A stretch of DNA of 64,000 nucleotides from Candidatus Hodarchaeota archaeon. Its GTDB lineage: Archaea > Asgardarchaeota > Heimdallarchaeia > Hodarchaeales > Hodarchaeaceae. The stretch spans positions 1-64,000 of the forward strand of contig JAEOTM010000076.1 of NCBI GenBank assembly GCA_016839815.1, written 5' to 3'. Each line of letters begins with the position of its first letter. Position 1 is the stretch's first letter. This document shows positions 47,269 to 57,397 of the stretch, one piece after another. A model generated the notes under the pieces. That model was not told the DNA's origin and did no database searches. It saw only the letters and a program-made list of their open reading frames with translations. Position numbers and translations under genes: made by a program.

Positions 47269-49035
47269 CTAGGTTTTTGATCGTTCTTCACTTTTTAAGA
47301 CGCGTCTTAATACTTTTCCAATATCTGACAGTGGTAATTCAGTTCGAATCTCAACGTACCGCTCATCATGAGGTTGTTTATATTTCACTAGCTTTCTACG
47401 CGCATACTCCAAGATTTCTTCTTTAGTTAGTTCCACATTAGGTTTAGGGACAACGAATAGTTTTACTGTTTCTCCAACCGAAGGATGGGTCACACCAATG
47501 CATGCAGCATTGGAAATTTTCGGATGTTCTATCATGACTTCTTCGATTTCGCGTGGATATGCCTTGAATCCTCCAACGTTAATTAAATCCTTCTTTCTAT
47601 CTGTAATATAGAAATAATAATCAGAATCATATTTACCAATGTCACCGGTCAGGAAATAACGCTTTCCATCGATTTCTCTCATAACTTCAGCTGTTTCCTT
47701 TGGTTTCTTGTAATATCCTTTCATCACCTGAGGTCCAGAAATTGCAATTTCTCCCTCTGTATCAATTCCTAATTTTTTTGTCCCTGTTTCAACATCAAGG
47801 ACTATAGCATCAGTATCAGGGAGAGGAATACCAACAGATCCTTCCTTCTTTAATGGTTTATCTGAACCTGGAGCAGGTGCCATTGGAATGATATGAGTCA
47901 CAGGTGATGTCTCAGTAAGGCCATATCCCTCTGCTAAATTAGCTCCTGATACAGCTTCGAATTCCTGCAACACTGAAACGGGAAGTGGGGCTGCTCCACT
48001 TGAACTGGTTAACAAAGAACTTAAATCATATTTTTCTAGATCTGGGTGGTTCAATAAAGCCATATACAAAGTAGGTACTGTATTGAAGAGCTGTACTTTA
48101 TATTTCTCTAAAAGATGCAAAATCTGACTGAATTTGTTTTCACGTGGGTCCAGCATTAAAACCATTAATCCTGCAAAATAAATGCCTAAGTTCATCGAAG
48201 TGGTTGCCCCATAGCTGTGGAAAAATGGTAAACTACCAATTCCAATCATTGTACCCCTTTCAGGAGGAGGTTCCATCCAAAGAGAGCATTGTACCAAATT
48301 ACTAACAAGATTTCCGTGAGTTAACATGGCACCTTTAGGGGTACCTGTTGTTCCGCCGGTAAACATAATTACTGCGATTTCGTCAGGAGTATTAGTAACA
48401 TTTGGACGATTTTCAGGCGAATATTCCCGGAGAATGTCTTTCATATATTTATCCTGTTTATCTAGCTTACTAATCTTACCTAATAATCCTCCCAACACTC
48501 CTTTAATTTTAGAAAGGTACGGTTTGACACTCGCAACTACTATAAATTCTAATGGGGTTTTTCCTTCATCTCTTACTTCTTTGCAGATTTCATATGGGGA
48601 AGCAGCTGTTGTGATCATATCTGCACATACTATACCTTTTGCTTCACTTTGGATAAGTTGTCCGGCAAGTTCGCTTGTGGGATACTGAAAATTTAAGCTC
48701 ACTACTGTTGCTCCTACTTTTAAAATGCCATAATATGCAACAACAAATTCAACCATATTCGGAAGAAATACTGCTACTTTATCCCCTTGTTTAATTCCTT
48801 TATCGACGAGAAACGAAGCGAACCTATCAGTTTGATCCCCTAATTCGCTATAAGTAACCTTGGCGATTTTGTCAAAACTTAATGTTTCTAGTACAAGGGC
48901 ATCATTATTAGGAAAATCAGCTACTGCATCATCAAGAAACTTGAAAAGAGGAATTTCAGGATAATCCATTGTTTTTGGTACTTTTTCTGGGTACAAAGGA
49001 ATTTCAGTGGGATTAACCATAATTTCGTCCACCAT
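47269..49035 (-). CDS. fadD: Long-chain fatty-acid--CoA ligase (AMP-binding)
   Basis: FTGGTTGTPKG, EGYGLTE, TGDIG, DRKKD, YPREIEE, LP....GK.LRR. Confidence 0.9.
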   Translation of the reverse strand: MVDEIMVNPTEIPLYPEKVPKTMDYPEIPLFKFLDDAVADFPNNDALVLETLSFDKIAKVTYSELGDQTDRFASFLVDKGIKQGDKVAVFLPNMVEFVVAYYGILKVGATVVSLNFQYPTSELAGQLIQSEAKGIVCADMITTAASPYEICKEVRDEGKTPLEFIVVASVKPYLSKIKGVLGGLLGKISKLDKQDKYMKDILREYSPENRPNVTNTPDEIAVIMFTGGTTGTPKGAMLTHGNLVSNLVQCSLWMEPPPERGTMIGIGSLPFFHSYGATTSMNLGIYFAGLMVLMLDPRENKFSQILHLLEKYKVQLFNTVPTLYMALLNHPDLEKYDLSSLLTSSSGAAPLPVSVLQEFEAVSGANLAEGYGLTETSPVTHIIPMAPAPGSDKPLKKEGSVGIPLPDTDAIVLDVETGTKKLGIDTEGEIAISGPQVMKGYYKKPKETAEVMREIDGKRYFLTGDIGKYDSDYYFYITDRKKDLINVGGFKAYPREIEEVMIEHPKISNAACIGVTHPSVGETVKLFVVPKPNVELTKEEILEYARRKLVKYKQPHDERYVEIRTELPLSDIGKVLRRVLKSEERSKT

Positions 49036-49578: not shown

Positions 49579-51003
49579 ATGATAGTGTCTCCTCGAACTA
49601 AAGAAACGAAAGACCCTGCTAAGCTCGTACGATCGGGAGTTTTTGCATTAAATAACAAAAAATGGAAAAAAGCTGTACGGAAATTCCAGGCAGCTCTAAA
49701 TGATGAAGAAATGCAGAATAATGCCATTGTATGGGCCAATTATGGTATCGCCCTCATCAATGTAAAAAACCTCCCAGAGGCTTTAAATGCGTTTTCAGTA
49801 GCAGTTCAAATTGAAAAAAAGAATGATACATTCTGGTCAAAGAAGGGACTTGTTGAATTTCAGCTGGAGCTCTATCAGGAGGCAGAAAATAGCTTTAGAC
49901 AAGCAGAAAAGCTCAATAAAACGAATGACGAACTACCGATACTCAGGTCAAGGAGTTTACGGAAACAAGACCAAATAAAAAAAGCTGTCAAAGTTCTTGA
50001 ATCAGGAAGGAAAAGATATCCCAATTCTGCGAAAATCCCTATTGAATTGGCTAGGATCTGGGAGGAACAAAATGATCTCGAGAAATCGCTCTCTGTACTT
50101 AATAAGGCTCTTAATGAAACAAATCATCCTGATCCAGGGCTTTTACTCGGTCAGTTGTGCTTAGATAAGCAGGAATATGCAAAAGCAATTAAAACCTATA
50201 CAACGGTGCTAGAGCGGTTTCCCGATTCATATCACGCCCAATATGGAATTGGAGTTGCTTATCATGCTAAAAAAGATTATCACAACGCATTAGAAGCATA
50301 TCGTGGTGTAATTACCAAATATAAGAATACTAAACCTCCTCAAAGCCTCTATATTAATATTTCACGTGTTCTACGAGAAATGAAACGACCAAAAGAAGCA
50401 TTAGACGCGTTGTATCGGGCTAAAAAGCTGGGAAAGCCATCATTGGAAATCTTCTTACTGCTAGCCGATCTTTATATAGATACAAATCGTCCAGATAAAG
50501 CCAAACGATCTTTAGAGGATGCAGTTCTAATGGATAAGACTAATCCAGCGCTTCACTATTACCTTGGTATGACACATCTTAGCTTAAAATCATATAAAGA
50601 AGCAGAAAATTGTTTTAAACGTAGTATAAAACTTGATTCATCATTTCACGATAGTAGGATCCAATTATCCCTCCTTGCAATAAATGCAAAAAGATATAAT
50701 GAAGCATACTCAATAGTGAATGAAATTTTAGCTCTAGATCCCGATAATATAAAAGCAATGCGACTCACCGCTCAACTAGCATTTGATTTGAGAGATTTTC
50801 GTCGTACAATTGAGATTCTCAAGCCTCTTGTTCAAAAGGATCCTTCTCATACAAAAGATCTCGAGATACTATTAAATGCATGGTTAATTCTCAGTCAACC
50901 CGAAAAAGCACATACCTTTATGGTTGAGCTTTTAAATAATCATAAAGAATTACGTTCACAACTTAAACCTATTGCGTTTTTCAATCAATTTTTGGAGAAG
51001 TAG
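49579..51003 (+). CDS. Tetratricopeptide-repeat protein
   Basis: Many W/Y..LG......Y.EA...F..A...P TPR units throughout. Confidence 0.9.
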   Translation: MIVSPRTKETKDPAKLVRSGVFALNNKKWKKAVRKFQAALNDEEMQNNAIVWANYGIALINVKNLPEALNAFSVAVQIEKKNDTFWSKKGLVEFQLELYQEAENSFRQAEKLNKTNDELPILRSRSLRKQDQIKKAVKVLESGRKRYPNSAKIPIELARIWEEQNDLEKSLSVLNKALNETNHPDPGLLLGQLCLDKQEYAKAIKTYTTVLERFPDSYHAQYGIGVAYHAKKDYHNALEAYRGVITKYKNTKPPQSLYINISRVLREMKRPKEALDALYRAKKLGKPSLEIFLLLADLYIDTNRPDKAKRSLEDAVLMDKTNPALHYYLGMTHLSLKSYKEAENCFKRSIKLDSSFHDSRIQLSLLAINAKRYNEAYSIVNEILALDPDNIKAMRLTAQLAFDLRDFRRTIEILKPLVQKDPSHTKDLEILLNAWLILSQPEKAHTFMVELLNNHKELRSQLKPIAFFNQFLEK

Positions 51004-51013
51004 GGAACATAAA

Positions 51014-51805
51014 GTGACCTTAAGTTTACAGGAAAAGACCCATATTTTAATGGATTGTGATGGTGTAATTTGGAAAGGGAATCAGGCAATTCCAGGAGCG
51101 AAAGAAGCATTAGAAAATCTGGAATCATTGGGCTATCAATTAGGATTTGTAACTAATAACTCAAGCCTCTCACGTGATGGATTTTCCCAAAAATTCGATT
51201 CCTTGGGATTTCCCTCGGAAAAATACGTTATTCTTAATTCAGGTTATGGAGCAGCTGTCTATTTACGGGATAATAAGCTCACAAAAATCTTTATGATAGG
51301 AGAGAAGGGTCTACAAGACGAATTAGAGTACCAAGATTTAACTGTCTCAGAAAACTATCATCAGGACTTACAGGCTGTTTGTATTGGATGGGATCGCAAA
51401 CTAACTTGGACTAAATTGGCTGATGCGATGTGGGTGATATTGAATAATAATAGTCAATTCGTAGGAACCAATCCAGATAATAGTTTTCCATCTGTAGATA
51501 GATTAGTTCCTGGTGCTGGTGCTGGAATTGCTGCTCTTGCAAACGCATGTGGAAAGGATCCTGATATAATCATTGGTAAGCCTAATCCCTATTTACTAAA
51601 TTTAAGCTTAAAAGAGATGAATTGTTCCGATTCCACTAGGGCAGTCTTCATTGGGGATCGTTTATCTACAGATATTCTAGCAGGGATTAATGCAAATATG
51701 GATACGATATTAGTTCAGACTGGGATTTCCGATTATCATCTGAAAAAAACAATTTTACCGACTTATACTCTCGACTCACTTGCACAGATTGATCAATTGA
51801 TTTGA
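51014..51805 (+). CDS. HAD-IIA (NagD-like) phosphatase
   Basis: DCDGVIW, TNNS, TNPD, GKP, IGDRL.TDI..G. GTG 51014 chosen over ORF-track 50972. Confidence 0.9.
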   Translation: MTLSLQEKTHILMDCDGVIWKGNQAIPGAKEALENLESLGYQLGFVTNNSSLSRDGFSQKFDSLGFPSEKYVILNSGYGAAVYLRDNKLTKIFMIGEKGLQDELEYQDLTVSENYHQDLQAVCIGWDRKLTWTKLADAMWVILNNNSQFVGTNPDNSFPSVDRLVPGAGAGIAALANACGKDPDIIIGKPNPYLLNLSLKEMNCSDSTRAVFIGDRLSTDILAGINANMDTILVQTGISDYHLKKTILPTYTLDSLAQIDQLI

Positions 51806-51841
51806 ATTTCCTTTACCGCTTTACTGAAGGACTGAAAATTT

Positions 51842-54568
51842 ATGCGTAGAATAGGATTTCTGCAAAAAAAAGGTCTTGTTTTGTTGTTGTTTATTGTTTT
51901 CCCACTTATAGGCAGTTTTGGGTATAATTCTAATTTAGCTGTGAGAATAACTGCATCTACTTCTAATATTTATCAAGAGACTGATGATTTTCATCCTCAA
52001 AGAAACTACATCTCTTCTATTCCATCTGATTTAGTTTCGATCCAGTCACCAATTTCAACAGAGATATTTGATGTTAATGCTAGCTTTGAAGAAAAATTAA
52101 GCTTAATTAATCCATTAAAGGATGATACACTGACTGGGAAAGATATCAAAATCGCAGTTTTAGATTCTGGAATAAATAATTCACTTTGGATAAGAGAAAC
52201 TTCAATTATCAACCGCTCAAGAGTAGTTGCTAGTGTTTCTTTTAACGATAGTATCGGACATGGGACACTGGTTGGAAGTATTATCTCTAAAATAGCTCCA
52301 GAGTCCAATCTATACAGCATTAAGGTTGTCGATGAATCAGGGGTAGCAACCCAAGAAAATGTTGAGAAGGGACTACTTCTCGCTCTCTCTTTGAATGTGT
52401 CAATTATTCATGCTTCACTTGGATCACAGGATATAATGGCTATTAATTCGTCTTTAATCTCAAGCTTAATAAACAATAATATCTCTCTAATAGTATCTGG
52501 GGGAAATAACGGCCCCTTTGGTAGTAGTATTACTTCTCCAGCGATTTTCAATGAAGTGATAGCTGTAGGCATGACCTACAATCAAACATACATACCCTCC
52601 ATCTCTTCTGTTGGTCCACGGCCTTCAGGTATACTAGGTCCAGATATAGTTGCCCCAGGAGTATATATTCCTTCCTACAATAATTCAGAAACCTACCAAA
52701 ATGTTTCAGGAACCTCTTTCTCTGCACCATTTGTTACTGGCTCTGTTGCGCTTTTACGTCAGGCTTTTCCAAAAATTTCTCCATTAACCATAAAAACTGC
52801 TCTTCTTTCTTCTGCAACTTTTATTGAGGGTATTTCACCTTCTCGACAAGGTAATGGTCTCCTCAATGTAGTAGAAGCTTATAATGTTCTTGAAGAGGTA
52901 AATAAGTCTCCTTTAATTACTTTCACACCTAGAGAAATATCATCCGATTTTTATTACTTCGGTCAATCGATAAATGGACAAAATCAGACGTATAATTTAG
53001 GTATTTATTCCTCATTGAAATGTAATTTAACAAAGATGGATAGCAGCACATTACTTCCAATCATTGCAGAAATACCACAAACTGACAGTTCCAATCTCAA
53101 AATACCCATCAATGTGGGATTCAATTCAATCAAGTTATCTCTCACCATCCCAGAGACACTATCTATGAATGAATGGATTGGTAATATTATATTCGATTTT
53201 GAATATAATAAATCATTTATGGGTAATAAACCTCTTGAACACCTGACTCAAAGAGAAATACCAGTTCATATCGAAAATCGCTATCCTGGAGGACGAATTC
53301 TTTTCTATCAGGGCTATGATAACGATAGTTTTATTCCCGATGGACCCACAGGTAGATTTAGCCAGTTACATTACTTTTTTGAAGATATATTTGGGATGCA
53401 AACTATAGGGGCAATCCCAGCAACTCTCGGGTTGTCCATCGCAGGTCCACTTCAAAATACTGCTTCATCACAAGGTAATATTTCCCCAGAAGACCTGGAG
53501 AACTATGATATTCTTGTCTTGGCTGACATTGAGAAAGGATTAGCAGAAGAAGACAATAAAATTATTCACGAATGGGTAAACGATGGTCATTCATTACTTG
53601 TTCTCTCATATCCTTCCTTCACTATAGGTCAGACTGAATATTTATCAAATCGGACAGCAGTAAATTTACTTTTAGAACCGTTTGACCTATCAATTGATGA
53701 AGATTCCTCTAATTTCACAATGAACCGGTTTATACAGGCCGAGCTCGCCCCTTCAAGTCCAATTGATGATATTGACGGTCTTATGTTTGACTATAATGGT
53801 ACTTCTGTGAGTGTAAGCCCAGGTGGTTACGCTGAAGTACTTGCTACTGCTACAAATGTGCTTAATGATACTGATGATATCCCAATTGCTGGTTTCTGGC
53901 ACAATCCTGATACGAATGGAAAAGTAGTCGCATTCGGAAGTTTAGATCCGTTTAGGGACAGTAACTTCTACTCACCTAATCTTAATCATAACTTTTATCT
54001 AGCCTCTCAAATCTTCCGCTGGCTGATACGAGATCAAGAACCTGCCATGGATGTAAATCTTGCCGGAAATCCTAGTAAGGGGACATCTACTAAGATTCAA
54101 ATCTCTTTTCCAGATGCTGATCCCACTGGGGATTTCAATGGAACAATAGTTGAACCAAATGGGTCTTATACGCAAATTACTTTTAAATTCAAGGTCAATG
54201 CTTATATTGGATCATGGAAACCACTAAAGACAGGTACTGCTATTTTATGGTTAAATCTCCATATAGAAGGATACGTTCCCTCAAATGGGTTATTTATTCT
54301 TACAGTGTACAACCCAGCTCAACAGGAAATCTTCTTGCTATTTCTCCTCTCGAGTTTTATCATTTTTGCTGTTGTATATTATTGGATTTCATCCCGTAGA
54401 TCAAAACCACGGCTTACACTTCAAGAACAGTTAGCCATGCAATACACGAAACCTAATGCACATGTAGGTACAAAATCTATGGAACCAGGTGAAATCTGTA
54501 CTCGGTGTCGTACTCCCCGTCATAATGACAATTCACACTATTGCTACAAATGTGGTAAAGAACTGTGA
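51842..54568 (+). CDS. Membrane-anchored S8 subtilase with C-terminal GATase/DUF4350-like domain, TM and cytosolic zinc ribbon (Site-1 protease-like architecture)
   Basis: Signal peptide; triad AVLDSG / GHGT / SGTSFSAP; oxyanion GNNG; YDILVLAD...GHSLLVL domain; TM; CTRC...CYKCG. Confidence 0.85.
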   Translation: MRRIGFLQKKGLVLLLFIVFPLIGSFGYNSNLAVRITASTSNIYQETDDFHPQRNYISSIPSDLVSIQSPISTEIFDVNASFEEKLSLINPLKDDTLTGKDIKIAVLDSGINNSLWIRETSIINRSRVVASVSFNDSIGHGTLVGSIISKIAPESNLYSIKVVDESGVATQENVEKGLLLALSLNVSIIHASLGSQDIMAINSSLISSLINNNISLIVSGGNNGPFGSSITSPAIFNEVIAVGMTYNQTYIPSISSVGPRPSGILGPDIVAPGVYIPSYNNSETYQNVSGTSFSAPFVTGSVALLRQAFPKISPLTIKTALLSSATFIEGISPSRQGNGLLNVVEAYNVLEEVNKSPLITFTPREISSDFYYFGQSINGQNQTYNLGIYSSLKCNLTKMDSSTLLPIIAEIPQTDSSNLKIPINVGFNSIKLSLTIPETLSMNEWIGNIIFDFEYNKSFMGNKPLEHLTQREIPVHIENRYPGGRILFYQGYDNDSFIPDGPTGRFSQLHYFFEDIFGMQTIGAIPATLGLSIAGPLQNTASSQGNISPEDLENYDILVLADIEKGLAEEDNKIIHEWVNDGHSLLVLSYPSFTIGQTEYLSNRTAVNLLLEPFDLSIDEDSSNFTMNRFIQAELAPSSPIDDIDGLMFDYNGTSVSVSPGGYAEVLATATNVLNDTDDIPIAGFWHNPDTNGKVVAFGSLDPFRDSNFYSPNLNHNFYLASQIFRWLIRDQEPAMDVNLAGNPSKGTSTKIQISFPDADPTGDFNGTIVEPNGSYTQITFKFKVNAYIGSWKPLKTGTAILWLNLHIEGYVPSNGLFILTVYNPAQQEIFLLFLLSSFIIFAVVYYWISSRRSKPRLTLQEQLAMQYTKPNAHVGTKSMEPGEICTRCRTPRHNDNSHYCYKCGKEL

Positions 54569-55479
54569 AGCTTGTTACACATACCGATTTAGATGGATTA
54601 TGTTGTGCAGCACTATTTATTCGAAAATATGGTTCATCTATTGATATCATTTATGCCACAGTACAAGAGGCTAAACAACTGTCTATCGATAATTTTCAAG
54701 CAAGTTATACCTGTGATTTACCTAAAGTATCGCAATCAGTAAATATAGACCATCATAAAACCAATTTTAATGACCTAGTTACCTCAAATCGCTTAACAGA
54801 AAACGATAGGGTTGTACCAGAAGCTTCCTCCGCTACTGATCTTGTCTTTGAATATTTAGGATTTCAAAACGATCCAATTGCAGAAGAAATTAGGGAAATA
54901 GGGCATCTTGCAGATATAGCTCTCCTACCAGTGGAATACAAACCACTTGATATTGTACTAAATCTAAATGTGGAAAATAAGCTAATACTAAGAGAAATTA
55001 GCGAGCTCTTAGCAGAGAATGGAAAAGATGTTTTACAGACTCCATGGTTGAAGAAAAAACATATAGAAGTTGTATTCATATATCAAGAGACTCATCAAGC
55101 CATTAGTAAGTTTTTAGAGGTTCACACAGTTATTCCACGGTTTGTACTCATAGATTCACGTGATTTTATTCCTGGAAAGTTAGCTAAAGAGATTTTTAAA
55201 CCATTGTTTGATCATGGAGCAGTTGTCATTGCTTTGATCTACAATAAAACAACCAATGAAATTCCAAGAATTAGTTTCCGAGTAACCAAGGCTGAGCAAG
55301 ATAATTATGATGTTTCGGTTGTAGCCAGACATTTTGGTGGTGGTGGACACCGTATGGCAGCTGCTTGTACTCCTAATCCCCACGATATCCCTGAAGAAGT
55401 CATGAACCAAATGAAAACAATCATGCTTCCTATCGATACTGTGGAGTTCCTTTCTCTTGACTTAAAATCGCAATTATGA
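54565..55479 (+). CDS. DHH-family phosphoesterase
   Basis: HTDLDG, IDHH, GGGH..AA (DHHA1); GTGA overlap with the subtilase. Confidence 0.88.
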   Translation: MKLVTHTDLDGLCCAALFIRKYGSSIDIIYATVQEAKQLSIDNFQASYTCDLPKVSQSVNIDHHKTNFNDLVTSNRLTENDRVVPEASSATDLVFEYLGFQNDPIAEEIREIGHLADIALLPVEYKPLDIVLNLNVENKLILREISELLAENGKDVLQTPWLKKKHIEVVFIYQETHQAISKFLEVHTVIPRFVLIDSRDFIPGKLAKEIFKPLFDHGAVVIALIYNKTTNEIPRISFRVTKAEQDNYDVSVVARHFGGGGHRMAAACTPNPHDIPEEVMNQMKTIMLPIDTVEFLSLDLKSQL

Positions 55480-55611: not shown

Positions 55612-56808
55612 TTGAAAATTGGTATTTTTACAGATTCATGGGTCCCTAATCTTAACGGTGTGGTCGTCTCTATTATCAACGAAATACAATCTCTAAAAAA
55701 GAACCACGAATTTGTCGTTTTTGCTCCAAAACTTAGAAAAAGCGTCCCGTTTCGAATTGAAGATGTTCCAATTTATGAGCTTCCAAGTGTTCCTTTTCCC
55801 CCGTATCCTGGGTATAATGTTGCTTTTCCGAGTGTTGGCCTTTCAAGAGTGTTACGTAAGGAAAAATTTGATCTTATCCATTGTCATTCCCCTTTTTCCC
55901 TTGGTTATTTCGCAACATTAACTGCAAGAAAATTTTATGATATTCCCCTACTTAATACCTACCATACACACTTGGTTGAATATTCTGCCCATTTGGTTGG
56001 GGGAATTTATGCAGACAAAATTACTGCATTACTGGAACAAGCAGTGTGGTTGTATATTCGTTGGTTCTATAAACACTCCGATGTAGTCGTTACTCCATCC
56101 AAAACACTCCAACACGATTTACTTGCTCATGGTGTGAAGCCTCCTGTGTATTCACTACCTAATATGATTTCTAAAGTATTTCTGACTAATACTAAAGACA
56201 CAAATGAGGATATCGATCTTCAAAATAAAATTCGCGAGAAATATGGAATTAAACCCTCAACAAACATAATTATTTACTGTGGTCGCGTTTCATATGAGAA
56301 AAAGCTGGAAGTTATGCTGGAGGCTTATAAAAGTATTCAAGATTCATTTCTGGATAGTTTTCTCTTGATTGTGGGTGATGGTCCTCATCTGCAAACGTAT
56401 CAGAACATGGCTATTGAATTAAACCTTAAAAATTGCGCCTTCACGGGTTTTATAAGTCATACTAAACTTCCTGCTATATATCGAATGGCTAATTTTATGG
56501 TTACTCCAAGTGATACAGAAACTCAAGGTTTAACGGTCTTAGAAGCGATGAGTCAAAGTCTACCAGTAATAGGAGTCTCAGGAGGAGGTGTGGTAGACTA
56601 TATTTTCCATAAAAGGAATGGGTTACTCTCTCCACCTGGAGAAGCACAGGCCTTTGCGGAATCCATGAAAACTTTGCTTGAAGAGCCCGATACATTGAAA
56701 TCATATTCAATAGCTGCGAAAAAAACCGCAACACAATTTTCTTCAAAAGGTTATACTTCTTTACTCGAAAAAGCATTCCGATTAGCTGTTCAACTCCACA
56801 CAAAATAG
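55612..56808 (+). CDS. GT4 glycosyltransferase (monoglycosyl-lipid synthase-like)
   Basis: MKIGIFTDS..P..NGV..S, HCHSPF, TYHT, GRVS.EK, VGDGP, ETQGL..LEA. Confidence 0.88.
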   Translation: MKIGIFTDSWVPNLNGVVVSIINEIQSLKKNHEFVVFAPKLRKSVPFRIEDVPIYELPSVPFPPYPGYNVAFPSVGLSRVLRKEKFDLIHCHSPFSLGYFATLTARKFYDIPLLNTYHTHLVEYSAHLVGGIYADKITALLEQAVWLYIRWFYKHSDVVVTPSKTLQHDLLAHGVKPPVYSLPNMISKVFLTNTKDTNEDIDLQNKIREKYGIKPSTNIIIYCGRVSYEKKLEVMLEAYKSIQDSFLDSFLLIVGDGPHLQTYQNMAIELNLKNCAFTGFISHTKLPAIYRMANFMVTPSDTETQGLTVLEAMSQSLPVIGVSGGGVVDYIFHKRNGLLSPPGEAQAFAESMKTLLEEPDTLKSYSIAAKKTATQFSSKGYTSLLEKAFRLAVQLHTK

Positions 56809-56950: not shown

Positions 56951-57397
56951 GTGACAATTATGGCCTTACAACAAAACAACACTAGTGACATTGAAACTCT
57001 GTTATTGCTAATTATTGCTGTTGTGCTTGTTACTATAATTTTGTATTTTGGAGCACGCTTGATAGCAGGTAAGAAAAATACTGATACTGGTTATATAATC
57101 CGGTTACTGGTCATTGCGCTTATTATCGTAATTTTGGTCGCTGTGGTCATTGGAGCAATTGTTGGTGCTGTTAATGAAATACCCTTTGTTTCAACAGCAG
57201 CATATCAATTAGTACCAGTATTGATTTACCTAGCCATTGTGTATTTACTCAAATTTTTGCTTATTCCCGAGAAATCCGAATCAACCAATTGGCATGCTTC
57301 AGTTTGGATTGCGGTGATTACTTTATTCTTGATCTATTTAATAAACGCCATTGCGATTGAGTTAAGTTTTCCTCCACTAATTGATGCGGGTGTTTAA
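56951..57397 (+). CDS. Four-TM membrane protein
   Basis: Highly hydrophobic 148-aa ORF followed by a T-tract. Confidence 0.75.
   Translation: MTIMALQQNNTSDIETLLLLIIAVVLVTIILYFGARLIAGKKNTDTGYIIRLLVIALIIVILVAVVIGAIVGAVNEIPFVSTAAYQLVPVLIYLAIVYLLKFLLIPEKSESTNWHASVWIAVITLFLIYLINAIAIELSFPPLIDAGV

Follow-up and report, generated by a model that had tools for sequence, protein, structure and literature searches.

The window analysed here, a stretch of 64,000 nucleotides from Candidatus Hodarchaeota archaeon (Hodarchaeales, Hodarchaeaceae; assembly GCA_016839815.1, contig JAEOTM010000076.1, positions 1 to 64,000, forward strand), encodes a 908-amino acid (aa) protein, which we denote S8-GIFT (open reading frame 51842-54568, plus strand, ATG start) and which, judging from its sequence, is apparently an active, membrane-anchored protease of the subtilisin type. 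The peptidase S8 domain of this protein is followed by a predicted P-like beta-sandwich and a GIFT domain, the three-part ectodomain of the eukaryotic Site-1 protease (S1P, also MBTPS1). It is probably a type I membrane subtilase of the S1P build, and common descent is the probable, if unproven, source of the fused architecture that it shares with S1P. The gene in the window is itself a side-branch paralogue, not a demonstrated S1P orthologue. The protein can be described as a GIFT-bearing membrane subtilase that has the S1P architecture together with features of its own, among them an Ig-like stalk and a zinc ribbon.

Domain architecture of the S8-GIFT protein

Pfam readily recognises the catalytic domain (Peptidase_S8, residues 99-339, E = 1.1e-35). 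Across 44 aligned S8-GIFT homologues (alignment A1 hereafter), the basis of the conservation counts given here, the triad residues D108, H140 and S292 are invariant and the oxyanion residue N222 is conserved in at least 90 % of the sequences. No NCBIfam family scored above its cut-off, the best being mycosin (88 bits vs 278.75). Only two hydrophobic segments are apparent from the hydropathy profile, at residues ~4-30 and 826-851 (maximum 2.37), and both match helices (2-24 and 825-852) in a full-length AlphaFold2 (AF2) model that was built from the 44-sequence alignment with no templates (mean predicted local distance difference test score, pLDDT, 77.9; predicted template modelling score, pTM, 0.72). 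The second segment is directly followed by the basic stretch SSRRSKPR, in the positive-inside arrangement, and the 57-residue cytoplasmic tail carries a zinc ribbon that shows weak matches to Zn_Ribbon_1/DZR of Pfam. The four cysteines of the tail (C886, C889, C901 and C904) are invariant in the 44 sequences, as are G905 and L908, with E907 conserved in at least 90 %, making up a conserved C-terminal end, ...CGKEL. By comparison, the ectodomain contains a single cysteine; it also contains 22 N-x-S/T sequons, compared with 11.3 +/- 2.9 (maximum 21) in 2000 shuffles. Together with the conserved active-site residues and the two hydrophobic segments, these counts favour an active protease located outside the cell.

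Between the S8 domain and the membrane, the AF2 model contains a beta-rich segment (359-478), an alpha/beta domain (485-730) and a second, Ig-like beta-sandwich (737-823) that is inserted between the GIFT domain and the transmembrane (TM) helix. For the Ig-like domain, VIA-align finds a filamin repeat and CrdA (Z ~10 over 83-91 residues). The alpha/beta domain belongs to the GIFT family of IFT52, OST48 and GldG (Beatson and Ponting 2004). In the window protein, the match to Pfam IFT52_GIFT (PF23355) stays below the threshold (543-623, 22.7 bits; cut-off 27.2); all 44 members of A1 match this family (best E = 3.8e-13), and 41 of them also match PF09822. The GIFT domain (484-733) contains no cysteine, which excludes a class I amidotransferase and indicates that the domain is non-catalytic. 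Neither the AF2 model nor A1 reveals a folded pro-domain of the I9 or S1P type in the window protein, and the linker residues 23-75 have a pLDDT below 50 and no consensus in A1.

An earlier note on this DNA, which was made from the letters alone, had read most of this layout correctly: the signal peptide, the intact D/H/S triad, the beta-rich segment after it, and the single TM helix with a cytosolic CxxC...CxxC motif are all recovered as described above, and the stretches RILF..., YDILVLADIE...GHSLLVLS and AVNLLLEPF that it quoted are present in the translation; the Ig-like domain was absent from its list. According to the passages of PMC11231238 that describe the anatomy of the human enzyme, S1P consists of a signal peptide, pro-domains A and B, the S8 domain (catalytic residues D218, H249, S414 and N338), a P-like subdomain (479-616), a GIFT domain (617-998) that is unique to S1P among the proprotein convertases (PCSKs), a TM helix and a short tail. 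The window protein shares with S1P the signal peptide, the S8 triad and oxyanion asparagine, a beta-sandwich that is P-like by predicted structure, the GIFT domain, the C-terminal TM helix and the cytosolic tail, arranged in the same order, as well as the type I topology, with the catalytic part on the non-cytosolic side; the order that the earlier note gave for S1P is the one described there (PMC11231238).

Predicted structure and its resemblance to S1P

When the full-length model was compared with the whole PDB using Foldseek, the first two matches were S1P chains (9CSD_A, E = 3.1e-37, 751 columns; 8UW8_A, E = 5.3e-34, 757 columns) and the third was 8UWC, an S1P structure with no visible GIFT domain (E = 1.3e-21); the first entry other than S1P has an E value of 2e-20. 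VIA-align superposes the model with human S1P (8UW8_A) over 582 residues (Z 35.5, root mean square deviation (rmsd) 4.6 A, model 80-732 and chain 190-874); the subtilisins superpose with it at Z ~33 and an rmsd of 2.1-2.4 A over ~250 residues only. S1P is thereby the best structural match in the PDB, and no other match takes in the S8, P-like and GIFT domains as one unit.

To this full-length comparison we add a second model, for residues 356-908, from which S8 was removed and which was built from a separate 14-sequence alignment (pLDDT 78.5). S1P also heads the Foldseek matches of this C-terminal model (9CSD_A, E = 1.8e-14, 446 columns, rmsd 7.4 A), followed by OST48 (E = 4e-13, rmsd 20 A) and IFT52 (E = 6e-10). 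VIA-align of the same model against 48,161 representative chains, with no Foldseek pre-filter, ranks IFT52 first (5FMS, Z 22.0, rmsd 2.6 A, 208 residues, a single domain), OST48 second (6S7O_G, Z 18.6, 333 residues, rmsd 20 A, model 129-501) and S1P third (Z 17.9, rmsd 4.6 A, 319 residues, model 1-377 and chain 479-874). Among the matches listed, only the S1P chain extends over both the P-like and the GIFT domains while keeping the rmsd low and Z high. The P-like segment of the model lies within the span that is aligned to S1P and includes the P-like subdomain 479-616, where the HMMER posterior probabilities are low to moderate. The GIFT and P-like domains are predicted to pack on the S8 domain as they do in S1P.

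The low-confidence loops 222-228 and 247-265 of the model are aligned by HMMER with loops 338-348 and 372-384 of S1P, which, in the passages of PMC11231238 that deal with them, pack on the GIFT domain and are disordered without SPRING. This correspondence is only a parallel, since a low pLDDT can have other causes.

The three eukaryotic families with a GIFT domain, S1P, OST48 and IFT52, all head the structural matches of one Asgard protein. In the ESM Atlas, too, eukaryotic MBTPS1_3rd/4th clusters appear at ranks 2 (0.84) and 6 (0.78) and OST48 at rank 5 (0.79), values that are all below 0.9 and serve as leads only. For residues 484-733 taken alone, the IFT52 GIFT domain (5FMS, 5FMR, 8BD7; PF23355) is the best match by sequence as well as by single-domain structure; unlike the window protein, IFT52 is a cytosolic IFT-B subunit without a protease, beta-sandwich or TM segment. 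In OST48/WBP1 (6S7O, 6S7T, 6C26), as in the window protein, the GIFT domain lies on the luminal or extracytoplasmic side and is followed by another domain, a TM helix and a short cytosolic tail, an arrangement colinear with residues 484-856, but OST48 is a stand-alone protein of ~440 aa, lacks a protease and a P-like domain, and its domains fail to superpose as a unit. Subtilases of the pyrolysin/Tk-SP/Vpr type (3AFG, 9UES, 8JMW) share the S8A domain and the subsequent beta-sandwich; GIFT domain, TM anchor and zinc ribbon are all missing from them, and they carry an I9-type propeptide that is absent in the window protein.

Sequence relationships of the S8 and GIFT domains

Three further profiles were used in sequence searches: the post-catalytic profile of the window subfamily (A2), a profile built from 49 S8-GIFT proteins of the Asgard type (A3) and a wide C-terminal profile of 19 sequences from the window and the locus references (A4). 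The IFT52 structures are matched by A2 with E values of 6e-8 to 6.5e-7 and by A4 with E values of 3e-18, 1.3e-17 and 1e-11. The match of the window protein and of profile A1 to S1P covers the S8 domain alone. The profile of the wider superfamily, A3, aligns human S1P as one envelope (profile 140-735, chain 192-854, 308.9 bits); among its five best printed alignments, those of the other subtilases stop at profile position ~425, and that of Vpr at 537. The best S8 match of A3 is Tk-SP (3AFG, 413 bits), and the N-terminal extension of the wider superfamily aligns with the propeptide region of Tk-SP.

The Pfam family MBTPS1_4th (PF23090), which is derived from S1P, matches frames of ~800-1440 aa, the size of S8-GIFT proteins, in 32 of the 400 Asgard genomes, 19 of them above the cut-off, and in none of the 14 control genomes. 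A search of 1.84 billion representatives with A2 gave 148 matches at E <= 0.001. The 64 of these that were scanned against Pfam are mostly proteins of ~790-1340 aa that combine S8 and GIFT, frequently with zinc ribbons, and include two true IFT52 proteins; sub-threshold MBTPS1_4th matches were detected in 7 of the first 26 scanned (E = 4e-6 to 7e-4). Among the 120 listed matches (of 632 in total) to residues 180-900 of protein P0062, none was named S1P. In the structural alignments, the window protein and S1P are 18-20 % identical. A sequence link to S1P is present but weak, and for the GIFT part it is marginal once S8 is removed.

The stretches by which the earlier note had recognised S1P fit this pattern. 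HMMER aligns RVLWDQYHN, YGTLLMVDSEE...GLSLVIFS and ALNELLS of human S1P with the archaeal GIFT consensus at high posterior probability, so that the correspondence given in the note is real; it is, however, not specific to S1P, and IFT52 aligns there far better. Similarly, the likeness that the note had proposed to check by a Foldseek comparison of the post-catalytic part exists at the level of predicted structure, with S1P as the top match, but the sequence match reaches an E value of only 0.009.

Distribution and paralogues

Of 8000 candidates scored in a search with residues 360-908, 52 proteins reached E <= 0.001; the closest are 64-66 % identical, and all their named sources are Asgard archaea (Hodarchaeales, Hodarchaeota, Heimdall-, Thor- and Hermodarchaeota, Kariarchaeaceae, Promethearchaeota). 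The named proteins with a precomputed GIFT-type family are likewise from Asgard only, and a scan of genome contigs yielded 18 Asgard loci along with 9 bacterial loci that match the S8 part only (query 65-357). Of the genus's 21 genomes besides that of the window, 19 contain a near-full-length or a high-scoring fragmentary match to A2 (E = 1e-119 to 1e-279), and a weak match in one further genome brings the count to 20. At E <= 1e-5, A2 has matches in 162 of 400 genomes of the Asgard phylum, many in frames of ~970-1290 aa, including frames without S8. The S8-P-like-GIFT build is widespread in Asgard archaea.

The other Asgard S8-P-like-GIFT proteins have the same build as the window protein, frequently with C-terminal zinc ribbons, but are longer, at ~950-1300 aa, and have ~140-235 additional N-terminal residues ahead of S8; the window subfamily is distinguished by its short length, intact triad and linkage to HAD and DHH genes. 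Two of the longer forms are encoded in the same genome (contigs C66 and C100; Table 1), and for the C66 paralogue, S1P is absent from the 60 best PDB matches. In one single-contig genome of the genus (CP070760.1), the orthologue appears in two pieces ~147 kb apart (1763174-1764121 and 1910931-1911164), an N-terminal S8 part beside the TPR and HAD genes and a GIFT-to-zinc-ribbon part elsewhere, which may reflect a rearrangement, a misassembly or a genuine split.

Gene neighbourhood

The co-directional run with TPR, HAD and DHH genes pointed out in the earlier note is real (Table 1), and the start of the DHH gene overlaps the stop codon of the S8-GIFT gene by 4 nucleotides. As far as the contigs extend, the block TPR-HAD-S8GIFT-DHH-GT4-148-aa-272-aa is kept in 18 of 18 Asgard loci, and the two genes without a Pfam family that end it are kept in all loci long enough to show them. 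Identity across the loci is 45-90 % for the block neighbours and 41-65 % for the protease. Outside the genus, HAD-S8GIFT-DHH is also kept in a genome from another family of the same taxonomic order (G079; HAD 42 %, S8GIFT 28 % and DHH 38 % identity), in which the protease has 1055 aa, with S8 at 237-465 and a zinc ribbon at the C-terminus. At 11 other loci fetched around distant paralogues, the block neighbours are absent. This distribution makes the block a marker of an orthologous group at the level of the taxonomic order, and its persistence in the genus is sufficiently explained by inheritance of the gene order. Outside the block and in divergent orientation lies a 588-aa open reading frame (47269-49035, minus strand), presumably an acyl-CoA synthetase/AMP-binding enzyme by the look of its sequence alone, which is 86 % identical at the same position in loci L001 and L003.

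Table 1. Parts of the S8-GIFT gene, its conserved neighbours in the window and its paralogues in the same genome (window positions unless a locus is named)
Feature	Position	Strand	Basis
TPR protein gene	49579-51003	+	Pfam; block conserved in genus
HAD-IIA (NagD/PGP-like) phosphatase gene, upstream	50972-51805	+	Hydrolase_6 E 3.5e-26, Hydrolase_like E 5e-17
S8-GIFT: signal peptide or signal anchor, aa 1-27 (basic n-region, hydrophobic core)	51842..51922	+	hydropathy, AF2 helix
S8-GIFT: low-confidence, poorly conserved linker, aa 28-77	51923..52072	+	pLDDT, A1; structural matches begin at residue 77-80
S8-GIFT: peptidase S8 catalytic domain, aa 78-351	52073..52894	+	Pfam, invariant residues, subtilisin superposition
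S8-GIFT: P-like beta-sandwich, aa 356-480	52907..53281	+	AF2 strands; inside span aligned to S1P 479-874
S8-GIFT: GIFT domain, aa 484-733, GATase1-like fold	53291..54040	+	Pfam, profile, VIA-align, cysteine positions
S8-GIFT: Ig-like beta-sandwich 'stalk', aa 737-823	54050..54310	+	AF2 strands, VIA-align
S8-GIFT: transmembrane helix, aa 826-851	54317..54394	+	hydropathy, AF2
S8-GIFT: cytoplasmic tail with C4 zinc ribbon (C886, C889, C901, C904), stop codon included	54395..54568	+	A1, weak Pfam matches
DHH/DHHA1 phosphoesterase gene, downstream	54565-55479	+	DHHA1 25.8 bits (cut-off 25.9)
GT4 glycosyltransferase gene	55612-56808	+	Pfam; conserved block of genus
148-aa membrane protein gene, largely hydrophobic, no Pfam family	56951-57397	+	49-90 % identity
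272-aa protein gene, no Pfam family	57565-58383	+	55-81 % identity across loci
Paralogue C66, 1251 aa, S8 173-450, GIFT, zinc ribbon	L091:3025-6780	-	S8 + P-like/GIFT gene
Paralogue C100, 1050 aa, S8 163-443	L092:2635-5787	+	S8 + P-like/GIFT gene

Common descent with S1P and the alternatives

Several observations weigh against common descent of the S1P and Asgard fusions. In terms of anatomy, S1P has A and B pro-domains that are removed by autocatalysis; these are absent from the window protein, and the structural alignment begins at S1P residue 190. The window protein also has an extra Ig-like domain before the TM helix, unlike S1P, and a C4 zinc-ribbon tail in place of the short basic tail of S1P. 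The S8 domain of the window protein scores higher with subtilisin BPN' than with S1P (86.4 vs 73.3 bits), and so does the A1 profile (135.2 vs 129.3 bits). Two further paralogues with S8 and P-like/GIFT domains bring the number in this genome to three, and the S8 domain of the C100 paralogue scores 72 bits with S1P, just under Vpr and Tk-SP, vs 53 bits with BPN', so that, judged by S8, the window gene is not the most S1P-like of the three. For the GIFT domain, A2 has no match to S1P even at E <= 10 in a search of structure chains, and A4 matches the S1P GIFT domain (chain 652-853) with an E value of 0.0089 (17.7 bits), ranking it behind three IFT52 chains and one GATase1-like protein. Likewise, the GIFT domain alone is structurally nearest to IFT52 (Z 22.0 vs 17.9 for S1P over a longer span), and because the stretches that recall S1P align better to IFT52, these motifs are general to GIFT domains. 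MBTPS1_4th has no match to the window protein even at E <= 10 and is found in one of the 44 A1 members and in none of the 21 genomes of the genus; MBTPS1_3rd matches none of the scanned proteins (window, A1 and library matches); and the 64 scanned A2 matches include no true S1P. Finally, the inter-domain geometry comes from predicted models. The proposal of the earlier note, that this is a candidate archaeal relative of S1P, is supported in part: domain order and predicted superposition speak for it, but the S8 scores, the GIFT sequence and the pro-domains do not.

Alternatively, a pyrolysin/Tk-SP-type subtilase, complete with the C-terminal beta-sandwich typical of such enzymes, and an IFT52/GldG-like GIFT domain could have been fused in Asgard archaea independently of the S1P fusion, which would make the likeness to S1P an analogy. 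Such a scenario draws on the GIFT domain being far nearer to IFT52 than to S1P, by both sequence and single-domain structure, on S8 domains that are nearest to Tk-SP (3AFG) in the superfamily and to BPN' in the window protein, on a beta-sandwich after S8 that is not specific to S1P, given that Vpr (8JMW) aligns up to profile position 537, and on the presence of GIFT in many other contexts (the 162 of 400 Asgard genomes, frames without S8 and dockerin-containing giants). Against it, the order of the three domains and their placement relative to one another agree with S1P in both models, which were built separately (582 and 319 residues at an rmsd of 4.6 A); OST48, the other multi-domain GIFT protein, aligns at an rmsd of 20 A only; furthermore, HMMER holds S1P in one envelope through the GIFT domain, and MBTPS1_4th, a family derived from S1P, recognises Asgard S8-GIFT frames and has no match in the 14 controls. 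We consider an independent fusion possible but unlikely, and common descent of the fused architecture the probable explanation.

The functional reading can be challenged as well. The protein could be a general degradative or nutritional surface protease that performs no regulated or site-specific processing, with the GIFT and Ig-like domains acting as spacers or as glycan- or substrate-binding modules; its S8 domain is most like the broad-specificity subtilisins, the genome encodes three S8-GIFT paralogues, and the protease diverges faster than its block neighbours, as expected of a surface-exposed protein. By contrast, an enzyme of bulk degradation would not be expected to have a short-stalk membrane tether, an invariant zinc ribbon and C-terminus, a single orthologue per genome in 20 of the 21 genus genomes and a fixed position among genes for cytosolic enzymes, and we regard this role as possible but unlikely. 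A role as an N-glycosylation accessory, in which the half of the protein from GIFT through the beta-sandwich to the TM helix would work as in the oligosaccharyltransferase (OST) subunit OST48/WBP1 and the protease would be secondary, could draw on the OST48 chains, which rank near the top for the C-terminal model and are colinear with it from GIFT to TM, and on the GT4 gene located two genes downstream. It is nonetheless highly improbable, and we rejected equivalence with OST48, considering that the OST48 domains do not superpose together (rmsd 20 A), that a separate GIFT gene of OST48 size (431 aa, OST48_N-like) is present on contig C32, and that the catalytic residues of the protease are kept in 44 of 44 sequences.

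Possible function and implications

If the S8-GIFT protein is a type I membrane subtilase of the S1P build, it would be exported by the Sec pathway via its N-terminal signal peptide, and its ectodomain, which is probably N-glycosylated, would be held just outside the membrane on the Ig-like stalk, as in the model. From this anatomy, D108, H140 and S292 with N222 can be predicted to cleave surface or near-surface proteins, by shedding membrane-proximal ectodomains or in the maturation of surface or secreted proteins. By analogy with S1P, the GIFT domain, predicted to lie on the S8 loops that bear the oxyanion asparagine, may stabilise or gate the active site. More speculatively, the invariant zinc ribbon could be a docking handle for a cytoplasmic partner, with the translationally coupled DHH protein as a candidate. 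Neither a SPRING partner nor substrates of the SREBP/ATF6 type are known in archaea.

The S1P-like architecture hints at an archaeal root for S1P. A broader proposal, that the Asgard S8-P-like-GIFT-TM superfamily is the prokaryotic source of S1P and that its GIFT domain and the GIFT domains of IFT52 and OST48 have a common origin in Asgard archaea, is one to which we attach only a small probability. If it were true, the extracytoplasmic cleavage that opens two-step regulated intramembrane proteolysis would be older than eukaryotes, the Hodarchaeales enzyme would cut membrane-tethered substrates before an M50 protease does so, and the zinc-ribbon tail, perhaps together with the co-translated DHH protein, would link surface proteolysis to the cytoplasm. 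The search for a Site-2 protease (S2P, family M50) that the earlier note had suggested does find M50 genes, on contigs C149 and C182, but these genes are uninformative because M50 is present in all 14 control genomes.

In eukaryotes, S1P starts SREBP, ATF6 and CREB3 signalling and lysosome biogenesis (PMC11231238), and the Heimdallarchaeia, including Hodarchaeales, are the subject of a paper on eukaryote ancestry (PMC10307638). An Asgard family with the S1P build and predicted geometry would be a candidate for a new eukaryotic signature protein; it would also offer a tractable, pro-domain-free model for the control of a subtilase by a GIFT domain; and the matching of all three eukaryotic GIFT families by one Asgard protein bears on the origin of this domain. 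We found no description of an archaeal S1P-like subtilase or a prokaryotic S1P counterpart in the literature searched. S1P, subtilis-, GIFT and protease do not occur in the main text of PMC10307638, nor do MBTPS1, site-1 protease, subtilisin, PF00082, GIFT or IFT52 in six of its supplement files; the main text of a bioRxiv study on structural clustering (10.64898/2026.10.28.762692) contains no S1P, MBTPS1, subtilis-, GIFT or site-1, although its supplements could list such a cluster.

Other GIFT-containing proteins

GIFT domains were also identified in several proteins of other kinds. The stand-alone 431-aa protein on contig C32 (L033:1270-2565, plus strand) scores 35.3 bits with OST48_N (cut-off 36) and is probably a WBP1/OST48 homologue of the kind published for Heimdallarchaeia in the text of PMC10307638. 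Two very large proteins, P0315 and P0316 (2260 and 2161 aa), which are both of the matches in an A4 search among proteins of 1312-3745 aa, contain Peptidase_S8, dockerin, CARDB/PKD-type and GIFT-type domains, P0315 with a precomputed PF23090 assignment, suggesting that S8 and GIFT are combined in quite different contexts too. On contig C33 (~50422-51903, L034), a 2134-aa frame shows weak GIFT matches (PF23355, E = 8e-5; A4, E = 0.0016). Eukaryotic IFT52 works beside the small GTPases of IFT-B, and in the 468-aa protein P0121 an IFT52-type GIFT domain (E = 2.4e-19) is fused to a Ras/Roc/Arf-like small GTPase (Ras, E = 7.9e-33).

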